A stretch of 64,000 nt of DNA from Pseudomonadota bacterium (lineage in GTDB: Bacteria; Pseudomonadota; Alphaproteobacteria; Reyranellales; Reyranellaceae), in the NCBI GenBank assembly GCA_018242505.1, contig JAFEBU010000077.1, forward strand, positions 1,953 to 65,952, read 5' to 3'. Below the pieces are notes generated by a model. It made no database searches and had not been told where the DNA came from. It worked only from the letters and a program-made list of their open reading frames with translations. The position numbers and the translations under genes were made by a program. Below are positions 38,378 through 55,013 of the stretch, in pieces. The stretch's first letter is position 1; each line of letters begins with the position of its first letter.

Positions 38378-38443
38378 TTGCATCATCTAGTGCCATCAAC
38401 ATACTGGTCTACAAAATATAGTTGCGCACACAAGATTTTGTAA
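38378..38443. promoter_or_regulatory. Putative NrdR boxes upstream of nrdJ
   Basis: Matches to the core CWANATMTWG: CATCATCTAG (38381, 1 mismatch), CAAAATATAG (38412, perfect, 31 bp from the first) and CAAGATTTTG (38431, 1 mismatch). Confidence 0.65.
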
Positions 38444-38540
38444 TTTAGTATCATCGTGTGCCTATATCTGCGTGCTCTGAAACTGAGAGAGCACACCCGC
38501 GATGGGACACGAGACGGGACGTTGGCACGGGGGATCGTTG

Positions 38541-41500
38541 ATGCGCTTTGAGCGCCGGAACACGCGAGCAGGAAAGTCGCCATTCGAAGGAGTGGCGTTT
38601 CGTGCTGCCGATTCCGAAATCCGTAATCCCGACGGCACGATCGTCTTCCGGCAGGAAGATATCGACGTTCCCGCCGACTGGTCGCAGGTTGCGACCGACG
38701 TCCTGGCACAGAAGTACTTCCGGCGTGCCGGCATCGCTCGACGTCTTGCACGCGTCGCCGAGGACGACGTACCCGAGTGGCTGTGGCGCTCTGCCCCCGA
38801 TGAGGGCGCGCTGGCGGCACTGCCGGAAGAGCAACGCTTCGGCGGCGAACGGTCGGCGCGCCAGGTGTTCCAGCGTATGGCCGGCGCGTGGACCTATTGG
38901 GGCTGGAAGGGCGGCTACTTCGACAGCGAAAACGATGCACGCGCGTTCCACGACGAGATCTGCTTCGCGCTGGCGGCCCAGTTGTGTGCTCCCAATTCGC
39001 CGCAATGGTTCAACACCGGACTGCACTGGGCCTACGGCATCGACGGACCGGATCAAGGCCATTGGTTCGTCGATCATCGCGACGGTGCCGCCTACCCTTC
39101 CGATTCGGCCTATGAACGGCCCCAGCCGCACGCGTGCTTCATCCAGGGCGTTGCCGACGAACTGGTGAGCGACGGCGGCATCATGGATCTGTGGGTCCGC
39201 GAGGCCCGGCTGTTCAAATACGGCTCGGGGACCGGTTCCAACTTCTCCCGGCTGCGGGCCGCGGGCGAGAAATTGTCGGGCGGTGGCAAGTCCTCCGGCC
39301 TCATGTCCTTCCTCAAGATCGGCGATCGTGCGGCCGGCGCAATCAAGTCAGGCGGCACCACGCGTCGCGCGGCCAAGATGGTCGTGGTCGACGCCGACCA
39401 TCCCGACATCGAGGAGTTCGTCTCCTGGAAGATGCTTGAGGAGCAGAAGGTGGCCGCCTTGGTGGCGGGCTCGCGCCTGGCCAACCGGCATCTCAATGCC
39501 ATCATGCGCGCCTGCCTCGAGAGCGACATCCAAGGCGACAGTGCATTCGATCCAAAGCGCAATTCGCGCCTGCGCCAGGAGATCGTGGCGGCGCGGGCGG
39601 CCGAGCTCCCCGAGAACTACATCCAGCGGGTCATCCAGTTCGCCCGCCAGGGCTATCGTCACATCGAGTTTCCGGCCTTCGACACCGACTGGGAATCGGA
39701 GGCCTATGCGACGGTGGCGGGCCAGAACGCCAACAACTCGGTGCGGGTCACCGACGCCTTTCTCCGCGCGGTCGAGGCCGACCGGGACTGGGCCCTGACC
39801 GAACGCACCACCGGCAAGGTCGCTCGCACGATCGCCGCGACCGCGCTCTGGGAGCGTATCGCAGAAGCCGCCTGGCACTCGGCCGACCCCGGCGTGCAGT
39901 TCGACACCACGATCAACGACTGGCACACCTGCCCGGAATCGGGACGCATCAATGCCTCCAATCCGTGCTCGGAGTACATGTTCCTCGACGACACGGCCTG
40001 CAATCTTGCCTCGCTGAACCTGTTGAAGTTCCGGCGCGGCGACGGCACCGTCGATGTCGCGGCATTCGAGCATGCGGTCCGTCTGTGGACCGTCGTCCTG
40101 GAGATTTCCGTGATGATGGCGCAGTACCCCTCGCGCCGCATCGCCGAGCTTTCCTATCGCTATCGCACGCTGGGGCTGGGGTACGCCAATCTCGGCGCCC
40201 TGCTGATGGCCTCCGGGCTGAGTTACGATTCGGCGCAGGGCCGGGCCATTGCTGGCGCCATCACCGCGATAATGACTGGCGCCGCCTACGCAGCCTCGGC
40301 CGAAATGGCGAAGCTGATGGGCGCGTTTCCCGGCTTCGTCGCCAATCGCGAGTCCATGCTGCGGGTCATCCGCAACCATCGCCGCGCCGCCTATGGGGAA
40401 GAGCAAGGCTACGAGGCCCTGTCGACGCCGCCGGTCGCACTTGATGCGATCAACTGCCCGGACACTGCGCTGGTCGTGGCCGCGCAGCGCGCCTGGGATC
40501 GTGCGCTTGCCATGGGCGAAGAGTACGGTTTCCGCAACGCCCAGGTCTCGGTCATTGCCCCCACGGGCACGATCGGCCTGGTGATGGATTGCGACACCAC
40601 GGGTATCGAGCCCGATTTCGCCCTGGTGAAGTTCAAGAAGCTGGCGGGCGGCGGCTACTTCAAGATCATCAACCGCACGGTGCCGCTGGCCCTGCAAACA
40701 CTGGGTTATGACGCGGCGGCGATCGCGCGCATCGTCGCCCATGCCGTTGGACACGGCACACTGAAATCGGCGCCCGCGATCAATCACGAGACGCTGGCGG
40801 CACGCGGCTTCGATGCAATGACGTTGCAACGCATCGACAAGGCGCTCGCCACGGCCTTCGACATCCGCTTCGCCTTCTCGCGTTACACGTTGGGCGACGA
40901 GTTCTGCCGCACAGTGCTGGCGCTCGACGATGCAGCGCTTGCCGATCCGGAACTCGACCTGTTGAGGCGACTTGGTTTCTCCCGCAACGACATCGCGGCG
41001 GCCAACATCCATGCCTGCGGAACGATGTCGATCGAGGGTGCGCCCGACCTGAAGCGCGAACACCTCGCCGTTTTCGATTGTGCAAATCCCTGTGGACGAG
41101 ATGGCAAGCGCTGCTTGTCTGCAGAAAGCCACATACGCATGATGGCTGCGGCACAACCGTTCATATCGGGCGCAATCTCGAAAACGATCAACATGCCGAA
41201 TGCCGCCACGGTCGAGGATTGTCGCAAGGCCTACGAGATGTCGTGGAGGCTGGGCCTCAAGGCCAATGCTCTCTACCGCGACGGCTCGAAGCTGTCGCAA
41301 CCGCTCTCCGCTCTCGCCCTTGGCGAGGACAAGGCGGCGAACGACGACCTTCTCGAGCTTCCACCCGTCGCGCGCGCCCCGGTCATCGCCGAGCGCATCG
41401 TGGAACGGATCGTCGAGCGCGAGGTGCGCCGTCGCGGCCGCGAGCGCCTGCCGCAGCGGCGCAAAGGCTACACGCAGAAGGCGATCGTCGGCGGCCACAA

Positions 41501-42239
41501 GGTCTATCTGCGCACCGGCGAATACGAGGACGGCCGGGTCGGCGAGATTTTTGTCGACATGCACAAGGAGGGGGCTGCCTTCCGCAGCCTGATGAACAAC
41601 TTCGCGATCGCGATCTCGATCGGCTTGCAATACGGCGTACCGCTGGAAGAATTCGTCGAGGCCTATACCTTCACGCGGTTCGAGCCGAGCGGCATCGTCG
41701 AAGGCAATGACGCGATCAAGATGTCGACCTCGCTGCTCGACTACATCTTCCGCGAGCTCGCGATCTCGTACCTCGGGCGCAACGATCTCGCCCATGTCGA
41801 GCAGGCCGACCTTCGCCCGGACGGCGTCGGCCGCGGCCAGCTCGACGACGGGTTGCCGACCGACGGCACCGACGCGGCGCAGGCTGCCGCGGCGGCCGTC
41901 AGCCGAATCGCCAGCGTCGGCTATTTGCGCAGCAACCTCCAAGGATTGAACGGCCGGGCGGCCGACAGAGTCGCGATCGCCAACGAGGCGGTCGCGACCG
42001 GCCCCGCGCCCATCGAACTGACGGACGGCCCAGCCGTCGCTTCGGCGCACATCGCCCAGGCGGCCGTCGTCGGCGTCGCGCCCGGAGGGGCATCCTCCTC
42101 ACCCGTGGGTCTGGCCGTCGAGGCACGGCTCAAGGGGTTCGAAGGGGATGCCTGTCCGGAATGCGGCAACTTCACCATGGTCCGTAACGGGACGTGCCTC
42201 AAATGCACGACCTGCGGCGGCACCACGGGATGCAGTTGA
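38541..42239 (+). CDS. nrdJ: Vitamin B12-dependent (class II) ribonucleotide reductase
   Basis: [25 protein letters not shown] and IAPTGTI motifs; TSCPD-type domain; C-terminal Zn ribbon CPEC...CTTC. Confidence 0.95.
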
Positions 42240-42317
42240 GCATGCGTGGCGTAGCGTACCCGCGTACTCCGGGGACCTCGCGGTTGGGGACCTCATAGCT
42301 AACCATAGGAGACAGTT

Positions 42318-42374
42318 ATGGCTGCTAAGAAAAAGGCTGCTAAGAAAAAGGCTGCTAAGAAGAAGAAGCAGTAA
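42318..42374 (+). CDS. 18-aa Lys/Ala micro-protein MAAKKKAAKKKAAKKKKQ
   Basis: AGGAGA RBS at 42307-42312, 5 nt before ATG; (GCTGCTAAGAAAAAG)x2 plus a variant unit; TAA stop; below the ORF-track cutoff. Confidence 0.7.
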   Translation: MAAKKKAAKKKAAKKKKQ

Positions 42375-42381
42375 AAATAAG

Positions 42382-42519
42382 GAAAGGGCGTAGGCCAAAG
42401 CTCAACTTTGGCCCCTCTAACCGACGCCTTTCGGCTTCCGTGTGGGTGCCCTCTCGGCCCCACCGGAAGCCACCTTCAAATTCAAACATTGAGCCAATAC
42501 GACGTCTCGCTTGCGAGAC
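42382..42519 (+). ncRNA. Putative structured RNA or long structured 3' region downstream of the micro-ORF
   Basis: Stems seen directly: GGCCAAAG/CTTTGGCC inside GAAAGGGCGT/ACGCCTTTC; GGCTTCCG/CGGAAGCC with inner GTGGG/CCCAC and GCC/GGC; GTCTCG-CTTG-CGAGAC. Confidence 0.5.
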
Positions 42520-42541
42520 CGGGAAGGCGAAACTGATTAGT

Positions 42542-42573
42542 GTCCGGCGACCACGGTCTGCCGGACTTTTTTT
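42542..42573 (+). terminator. Intrinsic terminator
   Basis: GTCCGGC-GACC-AC-GGTC-T-GCCGGAC followed by T7. Confidence 0.88.
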
Positions 42574-42635
42574 GCTCCTGGAACCAGGTCCGAGATCGGC
42601 CTCAATCCTTCCAAGATTCGCGCTATGCTCGGGCC

Positions 42636-43814
42636 ATGCCGGATGATTCGCCAACTGTCGGCCTGCGCGTCGTCGAATCACTTGCCGCGGTCGACGCCGC
42701 GCAATGGGACGCCTGCGCGCTCGCCCCGGGCGCCGCGGGCAATCCATTCCTGACACATCGCTTTCTGAAGGCGCTGGAGGATTCGAAATCGGTTGGCCGC
42801 CGCACCGGCTGGCAGCCCCAGTACCTGCTGGCGGAAACAGCGGATGGAACGTTGCACGGCGCCGCGCCGCTTTATCTCAAGGGCCACAGCCAGGGCGAAT
42901 ATGTCTTCGATCATGGCTGGGCACAGGCCTTCGAACGCGCCGGTGGCCGCTACTATCCCAAGCTCCAGATCGCGGTCCCGTTCACGCCGGTCCCGGGCCC
43001 ACGACTGTTCGCCCGCCCGGGGACGATGGCCGACGCGGTGCGCGACGCCATGATCGACATGCTGGCCAAGATCGCCAAAGACAACGGCATCAGCTCGGTG
43101 CACGCGACATTCTGCAGCGAGACCGACTGGAATCGGTTCGGCGCGCACGGATGGCTGCAGCGGCTGGGGCAGCAATATCACTGGCATAATGCCGGCTATC
43201 GGACGTTCGACGACTTCCTCGGCGCCCTCGCCTCGCGCAAGCGCAAGGCGATCCGCAAGGAGCGGGAGTCGGTCCGGCGCGAAGGCCTGGAGGTGCGCGC
43301 CCTCACCGGGGCCGACATCACGCCGCGACATTGGGATGCCTTCTTCGCCTTCTACATGGACACCGGCGGACGCAAATGGGGCTCGCCCTATCTGACTCGC
43401 GCCTTCTTCGACATCCTGGGCGCCACCATGGCCGACAAGGTCGTTCTGATCATGGCCGAAGCCGACGGCCGGCCGGTCGGCGGCGCGCTCAATCTCCGCG
43501 GCGACGATACGCTCTACGGCCGTTATTGGGGTTGCCTCGAAAGCCATTCGTTCCTGCATTTCGAAGCCTGTTATTATCAGGCGATCGATTTCGCGATCGC
43601 TCACGGCCTGGAGCGTGTCGAAGCCGGCGCCCAAGGCGATCATAAGATTCAGCGCGGCTATCTTCCGGTGCCGACCTATTCCGCCCACTGGATCGTCGAT
43701 CCCGGCTTCCGGAGCGCCGTCGAGGACTATCTCAGGCGCGAACGGCCGGCCGTCCAGCAGGAGATCGACGGCCTGCAGGAGTATTCGCCGTTCCGGAAGG
43801 AGAACGAGAAGTAA
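42636..43814 (+). CDS. GNAT/FemAB-like protein (DUF482 type)
   Basis: LYLKGHSQGEYVFDHGWA, YYPKLQ..VPFTPVPGPR, HFEACYYQAI and EAGAQG motifs. Confidence 0.9.
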   Translation: MPDDSPTVGLRVVESLAAVDAAQWDACALAPGAAGNPFLTHRFLKALEDSKSVGRRTGWQPQYLLAETADGTLHGAAPLYLKGHSQGEYVFDHGWAQAFERAGGRYYPKLQIAVPFTPVPGPRLFARPGTMADAVRDAMIDMLAKIAKDNGISSVHATFCSETDWNRFGAHGWLQRLGQQYHWHNAGYRTFDDFLGALASRKRKAIRKERESVRREGLEVRALTGADITPRHWDAFFAFYMDTGGRKWGSPYLTRAFFDILGATMADKVVLIMAEADGRPVGGALNLRGDDTLYGRYWGCLESHSFLHFEACYYQAIDFAIAHGLERVEAGAQGDHKIQRGYLPVPTYSAHWIVDPGFRSAVEDYLRRERPAVQQEIDGLQEYSPFRKENEK

Positions 43815-53999: not shown

Positions 54000-55013
54000 T
54001 CACGGCTTGGGTCGCGCCGGTGGAGAGGCCTGCTCCTGCCGCTCGCGCTGGATCTCCTTCCAACGCTCGACGTTGCGATTGTGCTCGGCGACCGTGCGCG
54101 AGAAGACATGGCCGCCCTGCCCGTCGGCGACGAAGTAAAGCGACCGGTCGTGTGCGGGATTGGTCGCAGCCAGGATGGAGGCGCGTCCAGGATTGCAGAT
54201 CGGACCGGGCGGAAGACCCGTCACGACGTAGGTGTTGTAGGGCGAGTGCGACTGCAGATCCGCCTTGGTGAGCTCGCGGTTGAACGAGCCTTTGCCGCCG
54301 GTAAGGCCGTAGATCGTCGTCGGATCGCTCTCCAGCTTCATCTTGAGCCGCAGGCGGTTGAGGAACACGGCGGCGACCCGGCTGCGCTCCGCCGGGATGG
54401 CGGTTTCCTTCTCCACCATCGAGGCGAGGATCAACGCTTCACGCCGATTGGCCAGCGGCAACCCCGGCGTGCGTTTGCGCCACGCCTCGTCGAGCGTCTT
54501 TTCCATCGCCTCCTTCATGCGCAGCAGAAGGCCGTCGCGCGTATCGTCCCGCGAATAGAAATAAGTCTCGGGAAGGAGATCCCCCTCCTTCACGTCCACC
54601 GTGATGTCGCCCGTCAGCGCATCCGCCTTGCGCACGAGATCGAGGACCTCGGCGGTGGTCATACCCTCCGGAACCGTCAGACGGCGCTGCACCAGCTTGC
54701 CCGACTGCAGCAGCTCCACGAGCCCCTGCATGGAGGTATGCGCGGGCACTTCGTATTCGCCCGCCTTGATGGGCTTGGGATCGGGATCGATCATCAGCGC
54801 CACGCGAAACAGCAGCGGATGGGTGATCGCGCCTTCCTGATGAAGGACCTTCGCCATGGTGGCCGGCCCTGCACCGCGTGGAATGACGATCCGCTTCGTC
54901 GCATCGAGCGGGCCTTGGGCCACCAGGATCTCGTGGCCGAAGAACAACGCGCCCCCCATCACGGTCAGGAGCAGGGCGATGAAGAAAAGGACCCAGCGGA
55001 AAAAGCTGAGCAT
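54000..55013 (-). CDS. mltG: Endolytic transglycosylase MltG
   Basis: LASMVEKET, NRL..KMKLESDPT, SPYNTY..GLPPGPI.NPG and YFVADG.GGH motifs. Confidence 0.95.
   Translation of the reverse strand: MLSFFRWVLFFIALLLTVMGGALFFGHEILVAQGPLDATKRIVIPRGAGPATMAKVLHQEGAITHPLLFRVALMIDPDPKPIKAGEYEVPAHTSMQGLVELLQSGKLVQRRLTVPEGMTTAEVLDLVRKADALTGDITVDVKEGDLLPETYFYSRDDTRDGLLLRMKEAMEKTLDEAWRKRTPGLPLANRREALILASMVEKETAIPAERSRVAAVFLNRLRLKMKLESDPTTIYGLTGGKGSFNRELTKADLQSHSPYNTYVVTGLPPGPICNPGRASILAATNPAHDRSLYFVADGQGGHVFSRTVAEHNRNVERWKEIQRERQEQASPPARPKP

Follow-up and report, generated by a model that had tools for sequence, protein, structure and literature searches.

In AbcR1/2, NfeR1/alpha-r14 and related alphaproteobacterial sRNAs, a CU-rich anti-Shine-Dalgarno motif lies unpaired between hairpins, and these RNAs end in a Rho-independent terminator, as does the locus described here. 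Lys/Ala-rich proteins of the histone-H1 type are represented by AlgP of Pseudomonas (PMC9239181), and rnTrpL/peTrpL of Sinorhizobium is a dual-function RNA with a peptide (PMC6614838, PMC7298713). Segment 42240-42573 of the window, i.e., of the whole 64,000-nucleotide stretch of DNA that was analysed, is a conserved two-part module of the Reyranellaceae, made of a micro-ORF and a structured RNA and located 3' of nrdJ. Its bearers include Reyranella, a bacterium of soil and water, and its upstream neighbour, leader and coding part are laid out as follows.

38502..42239, + strand: nrdJ, class II (B12-dependent) ribonucleotide reductase, 1245 aa (Pfam Ribonuc_red_lgC 2.4e-125, Ribonuc_red_2_N 3.1e-42, TSCPD 3.3e-10)
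42246..42267, + strand: GCGTA-rich box GCGTGGCGTAGCGTACCCGCGTAC, candidate promoter, operator or RNA site, kept in the leaders of Reyranella, g312, g310, g20 and f2
42271-42279 and 42286-42294, + strand: direct repeat GGGGACCTC ... GGGGACCTC, able to form a putative imperfect 8-bp hairpin with loop GCGGTT
42307..42312, + strand: Shine-Dalgarno site AGGAGA, separated from the ATG by 5 nt; CCATAGGAGACAG is invariant in 33/33 aligned Reyranella sequences
42318..42374, + strand: micro-ORF of 18 codons plus stop, MAAKKKAAKKKAAKKKKQ, ATG at 42318 and TAA at 42372-42374, net charge about +10

Each of the 54 sampled Reyranella genomes carries exactly one copy of the block that extends from the nrdJ stop as far as the T7 terminator (54/54, RNA model R1), and R1 also matches three further genera of the family; over the 335 nt of the block, 35 of 36 Reyranella genomes show 80-91% identity. 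Identity is 0.85 in nrdJ (0.675 at third positions), 0.90 in the leader, 0.95 in the ORF, 0.78 in the 3' RNA and 0.91 in the terminator, and 0.56 past the terminator, where synteny among Reyranella genomes directly breaks. The gene that follows varies among these genomes, being FemAB_like in the window, and in the family f2 no relative of the FemAB_like protein is encoded at the position downstream of the module. On the other side, nrdJ is the conserved upstream neighbour in all Reyranellales loci examined, and the micro-ORF starts 78-116 nt past the nrdJ stop in every linked homologue of the order. The ORF is missing from about 70 other alphaproteobacterial nrdJ loci, outside the order, and nrdJ loci that do not carry it have a terminator about 100 nt past the nrdJ stop.

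A self-contained transcript had been proposed in a preliminary description of this DNA. The unit does have its own terminator, but none was found in the stretch separating the ORF from the nrdJ stop by sequence, terminator scan or fold; together with a linkage to nrdJ retained in at least six genera of Reyranellales, this indicates that the unit is, at a minimum, the 3' end of what is transcribed from nrdJ. A promoter of its own is only hinted at, by the recurrence of the GCGTA box in locus L176, where it precedes a second Lys/Ala gene that itself lies behind a terminator. The scan for sigma-70-like promoters returned none, the GCGTA box included, and as a genome-wide motif the box shows no enrichment. 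Both copies of the GGGGACCTC direct repeat were found where the preliminary description had placed them; the hairpin that they may form is paired in 85.8% of alignment cells, yet shows zero two-sided changes and does not rise above shuffles. Searched for extra copies of the leader plus ORF, nine other Reyranellaceae genomes gave at most one, and this only in the four g310 genomes; the search used an exact pattern, which had no match in the remaining five of the nine.

By the comparative evidence the micro-ORF behaves as a genuine coding gene, and it is under purifying selection. The AGGAGA ribosome-binding site and an 18-codon ORF with 10 Lys, 6 Ala all encoded by GCT, and a G+C content of 23/57 are present as previously noted; the ORF contains 3.1 copies of a 15-nt unit, and the peptide consists of (AAKKK)-type units. 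Across the genus Reyranella the Shine-Dalgarno site and ATG are invariant, most changes are synonymous and the peptide is near-invariant, with synonymous variation at six codons and replacement at three (A7V, A13V and the last residue), and identity at codon positions 1, 2 and 3 is 0.993, 0.967 and 0.908. Homologues in other Reyranellales genera are Lys/Ala peptides of 18-22 aa that use other codons and differ in length by whole codons, those linked to nrdJ being MAAKKKAAKKKATKKAAKKKKM, MAKKAAKKKAKKAAKKKKI, MAAKKKAAKKAPAKKKAAKKKK and MAAKKKAAKKK[AV]AKKKAAKKK, and a Shine-Dalgarno-like GGAG/GAGG also lies upstream of the ORF in f2, g20, g310 and g312. In other families the same start opens longer proteins, of 34-87 aa. 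Of 401 genomes of the class, 9 contain the start pattern MAAKKKAAKK, against 0 in a reversed control, and a scan of the 5.8-Mb genome yielded only one further Lys-rich ORF preceded by a Shine-Dalgarno site.

On this basis the ORF is very probably translated. The codons differ from family to family but the peptide is conserved, so the product likely matters, and we consider it probable, with less assurance, that the functional output is the peptide and not the act of translation. That the ORF could be a functionless chance frame in an unremarkable 3' UTR and terminator region of nrdJ is scarcely credible: Shine-Dalgarno site, start, frame, stop and peptide are conserved across genera, the downstream helices covary and identity drops sharply past the terminator, so that the comparative data already contradict this reading.

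Third-position identity is 0.91 in the micro-ORF versus 0.675 in nrdJ, which, with the exclusive use of GCT, argues that some of the conservation either concerns the RNA itself or stems from concerted evolution within the 15-nt repeat. GCT makes up 7% of Ala codons genome-wide and merely 3-4% in groEL, which rules out codon adaptation as the source of the all-GCT usage; groEL is the yardstick here, as EF-Tu and ribosomal protein L2 are missing from the 91%-complete assembly.

The stretch of about 165 nt between the ORF stop and the terminator folds into ordered helices, and the 321-nt region reaches a fold z of -3.66, with 0 of 100 shuffles as stable. The elements of this tail are the following.

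42381..42418, + strand: purine box GGAAAGGGCG and hairpin H1 (GGCCAAAG/CUUUGGCC), predicted pairing 42393-42400/42406-42413 with an extension 42385-90/42414-18
42411..42427, + strand: CU-rich stretch CCCCUCUAACCGACGCC, single-stranded or weakly paired, its sequence kept in Reyranella, g312, g310, g20 and L176
42425..42529, + strand: predicted long-range outer stem CGCCUUUC/GGGAAGGCG around H2 and H3 (42425-32/42522-29), 8 pairs, 97.7% paired
42433..42471, + strand: hairpin H2 (GGCUUCCG-GUGGG-GCC ... GGC-CCCAC-CGGAAGCC), 16 pairs, 99.5% paired, 5 with two-sided changes
42504..42519, + strand: hairpin H3 (GUCUCG CUUG CGAGAC), the most variable helix, 5/5 modelled pairs with two-sided changes
42542..42573, + strand: intrinsic terminator, a 10-bp bulged GC-rich hairpin (42542-42566) followed by T7 (42567-42573)

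Helices H1, H2 and H3 covary in the aligned sequences, which demonstrates that the RNA, too, is under purifying selection. In a plain MAFFT alignment 95.5% of cells pair, versus 38-60% with slid partners, and 12 pairs show two-sided changes, a number reached by 1 of 500 shuffles; in a model-fitted alignment that includes g312, 98.9% of cells pair, 15 pairs show two-sided changes and, on each of five measures, 0 of 500 shuffles reach the observed value. In H1, 98.8% of the cells of its 13 pairs are paired and 4 pairs have two-sided changes, and in g312 the stem sequence is mostly replaced (GGGCCGUA/UACGGUCC) with pairing intact. The outer stem and the CU-rich motif carry no covariation evidence because they are invariant. 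As to H2, a GCUUCC...GGAAGC hairpin is also found in g20, g310 and L176, and in L176 it serves as terminator. The terminator of the module (99.7% paired, pairwise identity 0.91 in the genus) was identified from the fold, the bulged hairpin being missed by the terminator scan.

The three stem-loop domains of the preliminary description correspond to covarying helices, although their boundaries had been placed 1-11 nt off; the described terminator with T7 is present, at 42542-42573, and the ordered RNA reported after the ORF is borne out by conservation and by the shuffles of the model-fitted alignment, ORF and stems being kept in relatives with compensatory changes. The significance attached there to an extra-stable G-CUUG-C tetraloop in H3 does not hold, since no loop sequence of this hairpin, CUUG included, is conserved in relatives.

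Two rival readings place the function in the RNA or in the reading of the frame. The first takes the locus as a dual-function sRNA of about 260-300 nt derived from the 3' UTR, arising by processing of the nrdJ mRNA or by transcription from a promoter of its own, with the peptide as second product, and has a single-stranded CU-rich motif pair with purine-rich (Shine-Dalgarno-like) sites of other mRNAs. Covarying hairpins and an intrinsic terminator are the usual build of such RNAs, conservation of the unpaired blocks exceeds what simple stabilisation would require, and an alphaproteobacterial precedent exists in rnTrpL/peTrpL (PMC6614838, PMC7298713). The sequence CCCCUCUAAC(C/U)GA(C/U)GCC is moreover retained across genera though the surrounding pairing changes, the CU-rich stretch being a linker after H1 in some genera and a hairpin loop in others. 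However, complements of the CU motif in the genome itself are about as numerous as expected by chance, with none at a start site, and the minimum-free-energy fold pairs part of the invariant CCCCUCUAAC motif with a GGAAAGGG box. The family f2 keeps the ORF but lacks the R1 RNA, so that this RNA is not obligatory for the peptide, which also weighs against an sRNA as the core of the system. We regard this reading as unlikely.

The second holds that translating the Lys-rich frame is what matters, remodelling the downstream RNA or setting nrdJ mRNA stability: a ribosome at the UAA would cover the 5' purine box and thereby select between two near-isoenergetic folds. Each of the two purine boxes can indeed pair with CGCCUUUC, the alternative with the 5' box being just 2.3 kcal/mol less stable (-85.7 versus -83.4 kcal/mol); the predicted nascent fold uses the 5' box, which begins 7 nt past the stop codon in most Reyranella sequences, and synonymous sites are unusually constrained. 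Against it, the peptide is conserved across genera despite other codons, insertions of 9 and 22 nt set stop and box further apart in two Reyranella genomes, and the boxes are all invariant and missing in g310, g20 and f2. A conserved regulated downstream gene is likewise absent, because synteny breaks past the terminator. We hold this reading to be improbable, and the same conservation with differing codons and the same absence speak against the translation-sensing peptide of the preliminary description. The RNA partner or scaffold for the peptide that was also suggested there is a conjecture. The locus does not have the layout of a leader-peptide transcription attenuator, in which the ORF precedes a conserved regulated gene and is overlapped by terminator and antiterminator alternatives: the ORF follows nrdJ, the downstream gene varies and the terminator lies 168 nt from the stop.

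The peptide and the RNA tail are in no database searched, and neither matches a known family. Rfam at its gathering threshold gave 0 matches in the whole window, in agreement with the earlier view that the RNA belongs to no named family, and at E up to 10 the interval 42150-42750 gave only chance-level eukaryotic lncRNA models (E at least 0.7); a tRNA/tmRNA search found none. Four homologues of 20-24 aa searched against NCBIfam at E up to 10 matched no family, the bL37, bS22 and bTHX models included, this test resting on homologues as the 18-aa window peptide is shorter than the search minimum. Pfam likewise gave nothing meaningful for the homologues; its model HC2 (PF07382) matched neither 22-aa homologues nor the window peptide doubled in tandem, and K/A proteins of 46 and 87 aa scored 11.4 and 15.3 bits, below its 40-bit gathering cut-off. 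An exact look-up among about 15 billion predicted proteins found none of six homologues (20-24 aa) from both nrdJ-linked and free-standing genes, a homology search with the 46-aa paralogue gave zero matches at E up to 0.001, and nothing was found in the literature on the peptide motifs, nrdJ-linked sRNAs or small H1-like proteins for this locus. To our knowledge, genes so short are missed by every annotation pipeline.

A lineage-specific, ribosome-associated polybasic microprotein comparable to bTHX, bL37, bS22 or eL41 would account for a strong Shine-Dalgarno site, extreme basicity and single-copy presence in every sampled genome of the order, and the size lies within or under the range of known ribosomal microproteins. 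We nevertheless find it a rather poor prospect: NCBIfam gives its homologues no match, the Lys/Ala repeats lack Arg and aromatic residues, other families have the 34-87-aa versions with identical start, and a length of 18-22 aa varying by repeat units is easier to reconcile with non-specific charge binding than with a fixed rRNA pocket. A RiPP-like precursor of an enzyme-modified peptide could be imagined from the neighbouring B12 enzyme. NrdJ is, however, a ribonucleotide reductase and not a peptide-modifying enzyme, the gene past the terminator varies, no conserved adjacent maturase gene is present and the 18 residues have no visible leader/core division, all of which leaves this reading very improbable.

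The best reading overall, to which we give about an even chance, is a module consisting of a translated micropeptide and a family-specific structured 3' RNA, i.e., a polycationic micropeptide carried by a 3' RNA that is stabilised and may be regulatory. It would be transcribed at least through nrdJ read-through, perhaps supplemented from a promoter within the GCGTA box, and the peptide would thus be made together with the enzyme supplying dNTPs. A polycation role for the peptide is suggested by its composition, which fits the histone-H1-type Lys/Ala repeat named in the preliminary description; by analogy with a detached histone-H1 tail, the free peptide may act as a small diffusible polycation binding DNA, RNA, ribosomes or polyphosphate. 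The RNA tail would terminate transcription and shield the short cistron from 3' exonucleases, and its invariant single-stranded CCCCUCUAAC motif probably has a second role, in base-pairing or protein binding, within a picture in which we rate any role of the RNA beyond termination and stability somewhat short of even.

The peptide itself belongs to a widespread, unannotated class of polylysine micro-genes, informally delimited by a Shine-Dalgarno site, an ORF of up to about 45 codons whose residues are at least 45% Lys and otherwise mostly Ala, a following hairpin or terminator, and conservation among relatives; the micro-ORF has 10/18 Lys, 6/18 Ala, the Shine-Dalgarno site, the terminator and the conservation. 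Among the matches listed, a Shine-Dalgarno site with a 12-35-aa Lys/Ala ORF and a hairpin or terminator also occurs in Terriglobales, Nitrospira, Methylomirabilota, Verrucomicrobia, DPANN archaea and others, and in a pattern scan none of the polylysine micro-ORFs of other phyla adjoined nrdJ. The earlier view of the locus as a candidate undescribed system is upheld as to the lack of any database match, but the peptide is one form of a widespread class and not unique; specific to the module are the linkage to nrdJ and the RNA. A bolder version has free polylysine/alanine micropeptides of 12-35 aa as a class spread over many bacterial and archaeal phyla, of which the Reyranellaceae member is a dual-function unit, with peptide and CU-motif RNA both active and expressed with ribonucleotide reductase; we consider this a long shot. 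If true, it would link the making of DNA precursors to the supply of a polycation coating DNA/RNA and to an RNA regulator, as a bacterial counterpart of the coupled expression of histones and ribonucleotide reductase in S phase. Should the RNA do no more than stabilise and terminate, a clean if modest entry for the catalogue of small proteins would still result. In either event the case is approachable, as the micro-gene is fixed in a whole order including cultured Reyranella, such as R. massiliensis and R. soli, and Vineibacter terrae (strain CC-CFT640), and its constant neighbour is the essential gene nrdJ, and the co-conserved RNA, with its clear covariation, is a candidate new RNA family.

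Compared with described systems, the peptide shares AAKK/AKKK-type repeats and extreme positive charge with Hc2/HctB of Chlamydia (PF07382), AlgP and the mycobacterial HupB tail, and electrostatic binding to polyanions is expected of all of them. The H1-like proteins, however, are about 100-350 aa long, whereas the peptide has 18 aa, no folded domain and no PF07382 match, and its gene, unlike theirs, is coupled to nrdJ and to a structured RNA dedicated to it. With bTHX, bL37, bS22 and eL41 the micro-ORF has in common that it is very short, very basic and single-copy with strong translation signals, but these proteins are Arg-rich with fixed sequences, in contrast with a Lys/Ala repeat of variable length. 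From free-standing polylysine micro-genes the micro-ORF differs in being fixed behind nrdJ in a whole order and in its family-specific, multi-helix, covarying RNA. SgrS/SgrT, RNAIII/delta-haemolysin, SR1/SR1P and rnTrpL/peTrpL likewise combine a tiny ORF, a structured RNA and an intrinsic terminator, and in them, as in the module, both parts are potentially active; the module ORF, however, closes an operon at its 3' end instead of belonging to a 5' leader, and has no sequence or Rfam relation to these RNAs. Finally, the module is set apart from AbcR1/2, NfeR1/alpha-r14 and related families by the motif CCCCUCUAAC, by the lack of even a weak Rfam score and by the position of its RNA behind a coding micro-ORF.

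The module behind nrdJ, i.e., the segment from the nrdJ stop codon to a T7 terminator, comprises an unannotated Lys/Ala micro-ORF and a foldable 3' RNA, with the following layout:

38502-42239, plus strand: nrdJ, a 1245-aa ORF for a class II, B12-dependent ribonucleotide reductase (Pfam Ribonuc_red_lgC 2.4e-125, Ribonuc_red_2_N 3.1e-42)
78 nt from the nrdJ stop to the micro-ORF: spacer, with GGGGACCTC in two copies (42271-79 and 42286-94)
42307-12: AGGAGA (Shine-Dalgarno, SD), upstream of the micro-ORF
42318 (ATG) to 42372-74 (TAA), plus strand: micro-ORF, 18 codons, product MAAKKKAAKKKAAKKKKQ
~165 nt between the micro-ORF stop and the terminator hairpin: foldable stretch
42542-66, then 42567-73: terminator, a GC-rich hairpin followed by T7
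42636-43814, plus strand: FemAB_like gene, the next plus-strand gene after the terminator

In a mechanical ORF list, a GTG-started frame of 424 aa crosses the terminator into the FemAB_like gene (42540-43814, plus strand); the true start is most likely ATG 42636, because conservation among relatives having the same gene begins there. The region upstream of nrdJ (38400-38480) is AT-rich, with palindrome-like ACAAAATATAGTTG and ACACAAGATTTTGT, which we take to resemble NrdR boxes.

No terminator was found between nrdJ and the micro-ORF in the sequence, by terminator scan or in the fold, so that, at a minimum, the nrdJ transcript would carry the module as its 3' end; nrdJ loci without the micro-ORF have a terminator ~100 nt past the nrdJ stop. 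The module occurs once in the window's own genome, and 35 of 36 genomes of the genus carry it at 80-91% identity. A search with R1, a covariance model of the 3' RNA, found exactly one copy in each of the sampled Reyranella genomes (54/54), a strong copy in another Reyranellaceae genus, g312 (E 1e-27), weaker copies in two more, g310 and g20, and none in the sister family f2. Checked in relatives, the ORF is kept across other Reyranellales genera and the 3' RNA in four Reyranellaceae genera. Mean pairwise identity within the genus is 0.85 for nrdJ (third codon positions 0.675), 0.90 for the leader, 0.95 for the micro-ORF, 0.78 for the 3' RNA, 0.91 for the terminator and 0.56 immediately beyond it; given this drop, and a gene beyond the terminator that varies between Reyranella genomes, the conserved unit goes with nrdJ and not with the downstream sequence.

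The preliminary description had counted 10 Lys, 6 Ala (all GCT) and 23/57 G+C in the micro-ORF, correctly; a 15-nt unit is repeated 3.1 times inside it. Across 33 aligned Reyranella sequences CCATAGGAGACAG and the ATG are without any variation, and the Reyranella peptide consensus is MAAKKK[AV]AKKKA[AV]KKKK[QSI]. Six codons vary synonymously (AAA/AAG, GCT/GCG/GCA) and three by replacement, two of these being Ala to Val, with identities per codon position of 0.993/0.967/0.908. The strongest evidence for a gene comes from the other genera, where an SD and a Lys/Ala ORF lie 78-116 nt past the nrdJ stop; the codons used there differ, and the ORF lengths change by whole codons. The peptide of g312 is the same as that of the window, that of g310 is MAAKKKAAKKK[AV]AKKKAAKKK, that of g20, including Vineibacter terrae, is MAAKKKAAKKAPAKKKAAKKKK, and those of f2 (uncultured 'Reyranellaceae bacterium' MAGs) are MAAKKKAAKKKATKKAAKKKKM and MAKKAAKKKAKKAAKKKKI. 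A further one, MAAKKKAAKKAVKKKAAKKK, lies on a 3.4-kb contig binned as Caenispirillum (L176), possibly by mis-binning, since its leader is of the g310 type. With SD, start and peptide kept, mostly synonymous changes and different codons in other genera, the micro-ORF holds up as real, and a chance ORF is unlikely; that this conserved peptide is a RiPP precursor is likewise unlikely. No Lys/Ala micro-ORF was seen at ~70 other alphaproteobacterial nrdJ loci inspected. The start pattern MAAKKKAAKK occurs in 9/401 genomes of the class (0 in the reversed control), its matches outside Reyranellaceae being free-standing genes of 22-87 aa, none adjoining nrdJ.

Third-position identity in the micro-ORF (0.91) is far higher than in nrdJ, and all its Ala codons are GCT, a codon that encodes 7% of Ala genome-wide and 3-4% of it in the two groEL genes; for these reasons either part of the constraint falls on the RNA as such, or the repeat of 15 nt undergoes concerted evolution. 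Ala codons are mixed in the f2 micro-ORF, so all-GCT usage is not general. EF-Tu and ribosomal protein L2 were not found in the window's own assembly (91%-complete, 85 contigs), which probably lacks the stretch with the ribosomal-protein gene cluster.

Folding of the 321-nt region gives -120 kcal/mol (z = -3.66), and 0/100 shuffles were as stable. In a plain MAFFT alignment (33 sequences, structure defined from the window fold), 95.5% of cells are paired versus 38-60% with partners slid, and both-side changes occur at 12 pairs (reached by 1/500 shuffles) and in 44 cells (0/500). In a model-fitted alignment (40 sequences, g312 among them), an alignment biased towards the structure, 98.9% of cells are paired, with both-side changes at 15 pairs and in 57 cells, and 0/500 shuffles reached the observed value on any of the five measures. 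The compensatory changes lie in helices H1, H2 and H3, bearing out the ordered RNA proposed after the micro-ORF; H1 of g312 retains its pairing although most of its stem sequence is replaced. Covariation neither supports nor contradicts the outer stem (CGCCUUUC/GGRAAGGCG) and most of the terminator, since their sequence is invariant. H3 is the most variable helix, and the argument once drawn from its G-CUUG-C tetraloop fails, the CUUG loop not being conserved; the GGGGACCTC repeat is present twice in the leader as described, but as a pair shows no both-side change and does not exceed shuffles. Across the whole window Rfam gave no match at the gathering threshold, and at E up to 10 (42150-42750) it gave chance-level matches only, in agreement with the preliminary description, which could not assign a named RNA family; a tRNA/tmRNA search found none.

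Several features suggest more than a terminator. The motif CCCCUCUAAC(C/U)GA(C/U)GCC is retained in Reyranella, g310, g20 and L176, and it forms the linker after H1 in Reyranella and g312 and the loop of another hairpin in g310, g20 and L176, looking like a single-stranded functional motif. A 3'UTR-derived dual-function sRNA would accord with such a motif, and we consider it rather doubtful; in the own genome, complements of the motif are about as frequent as chance predicts. One 11-nt perfect complement, GGUUAGAGGGGG, lies immediately 5' of an intrinsic terminator (contig C33, minus strand, ~26325), one such match being about the chance expectation in 11.6 Mb. Two purine boxes, GGAAAGGGCG (42381-90) and GGGAAGGCG (42521-29), are each predicted to pair with CGCCUUUC, in alternative folds 2.3 kcal/mol apart; the nascent RNA is predicted to adopt the 5' alternative, and a ribosome at the micro-ORF stop codon would mask GGAAAGGGCG. 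A two-fold switch is an idea only, because all boxes are invariant, g310, g20 and f2 lack them, and in two genomes the stop is followed by insertions of 9 and 22 nt. A translation-sensing ORF, to which such masking would be relevant, seems quite improbable.

A GCGTA-rich box (42246-67) lies upstream of every nrdJ-linked copy. On L176 (3205-3421, binned as Caenispirillum bisanense) the GCGTA-box leader recurs past the clear terminator of the micro-ORF and fronts a second, longer Lys/Ala/Pro-rich (H1-like) gene, cut off by the contig end; the box may for this reason serve these Lys/Ala genes as promoter or operator. It does not match the sigma-70 consensus and is not enriched in the own genome. 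In f2 (L032-L037, L042, L043) a long hairpin, e.g. CAGACUGUGCCUCCCAC...GUGGGAGGCACAGACU, is found ~60-110 nt past the micro-ORF stop, ending 1-2 nt 5' of the ATG of the next ORF—judged RidA-like from its first residues—and burying its GGGAGG Shine-Dalgarno site in the 3' arm, possibly as a translational control element.

Taken from sequence, the module is most likely a translated polycationic micropeptide (net charge ~ +10) on a 3' RNA that is stabilised and possibly regulatory, expressed together with ribonucleotide reductase. What was first observed is confirmed, its interpretation only in part: coding ORF, RNA structure and lack of an Rfam family stand, the tetraloop does not. As to function, we infer from composition, and from how H1-type tails and oligolysines are known to behave, that the peptide would be a polycation binding DNA, RNA, ribosomes or polyphosphate; a specifically ribosome-bound microprotein appears improbable. 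Cultured hosts exist, which opens these questions to experiment.

Among the matches listed in a pattern scan, Lys/Ala ORFs of 12-35 aa, preceded by an SD and followed by hairpins, recur in many groups: Terriglobales (L045, L109, L111, L122; free-standing, MATKKKAAKKKKH), Nitrospira (L046, L049, L058, L060, L087; TTG start, adjoining lpxC, MATKKAAKKKKK), Methylomirabilota (L078, L091; free-standing), Verrucomicrobia, Patescibacteria and DPANN archaea, with free-standing, hairpin-followed cases also at L089, L090, L061, L103 and others. Free-standing ORFs of 11-20 codons are conserved per group with synonymous differences; among these matches none from other phyla adjoins nrdJ, and their gene neighbourhoods are unrelated. 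A second small gene rich in Lys is present in the own genome (contig C60, minus strand, 54361-54501; 46 codons, 46 aa, MAGRISTKKRATKKKVAKKKTAKKAAKKSVVKKAAKRKAAKKKKTI), with a TTG start after GGAAAGGAGA, a terminator hairpin downstream and no GCGTA box; it scores 11.4 bits against Pfam HC2, under the cut-off.

By sequence the micropeptide belongs neither to the ribosomal microprotein families (no NCBIfam match for four homologues of 20-24 aa) nor to the histone H1-like Pfam HC2 proteins (no qualifying match); neither it nor the 3' RNA falls in a described family. The micropeptide is one version of an unannotated class that recurs in many groups, and particular to this case are its fixed site behind nrdJ across an order and its family-specific covarying RNA.
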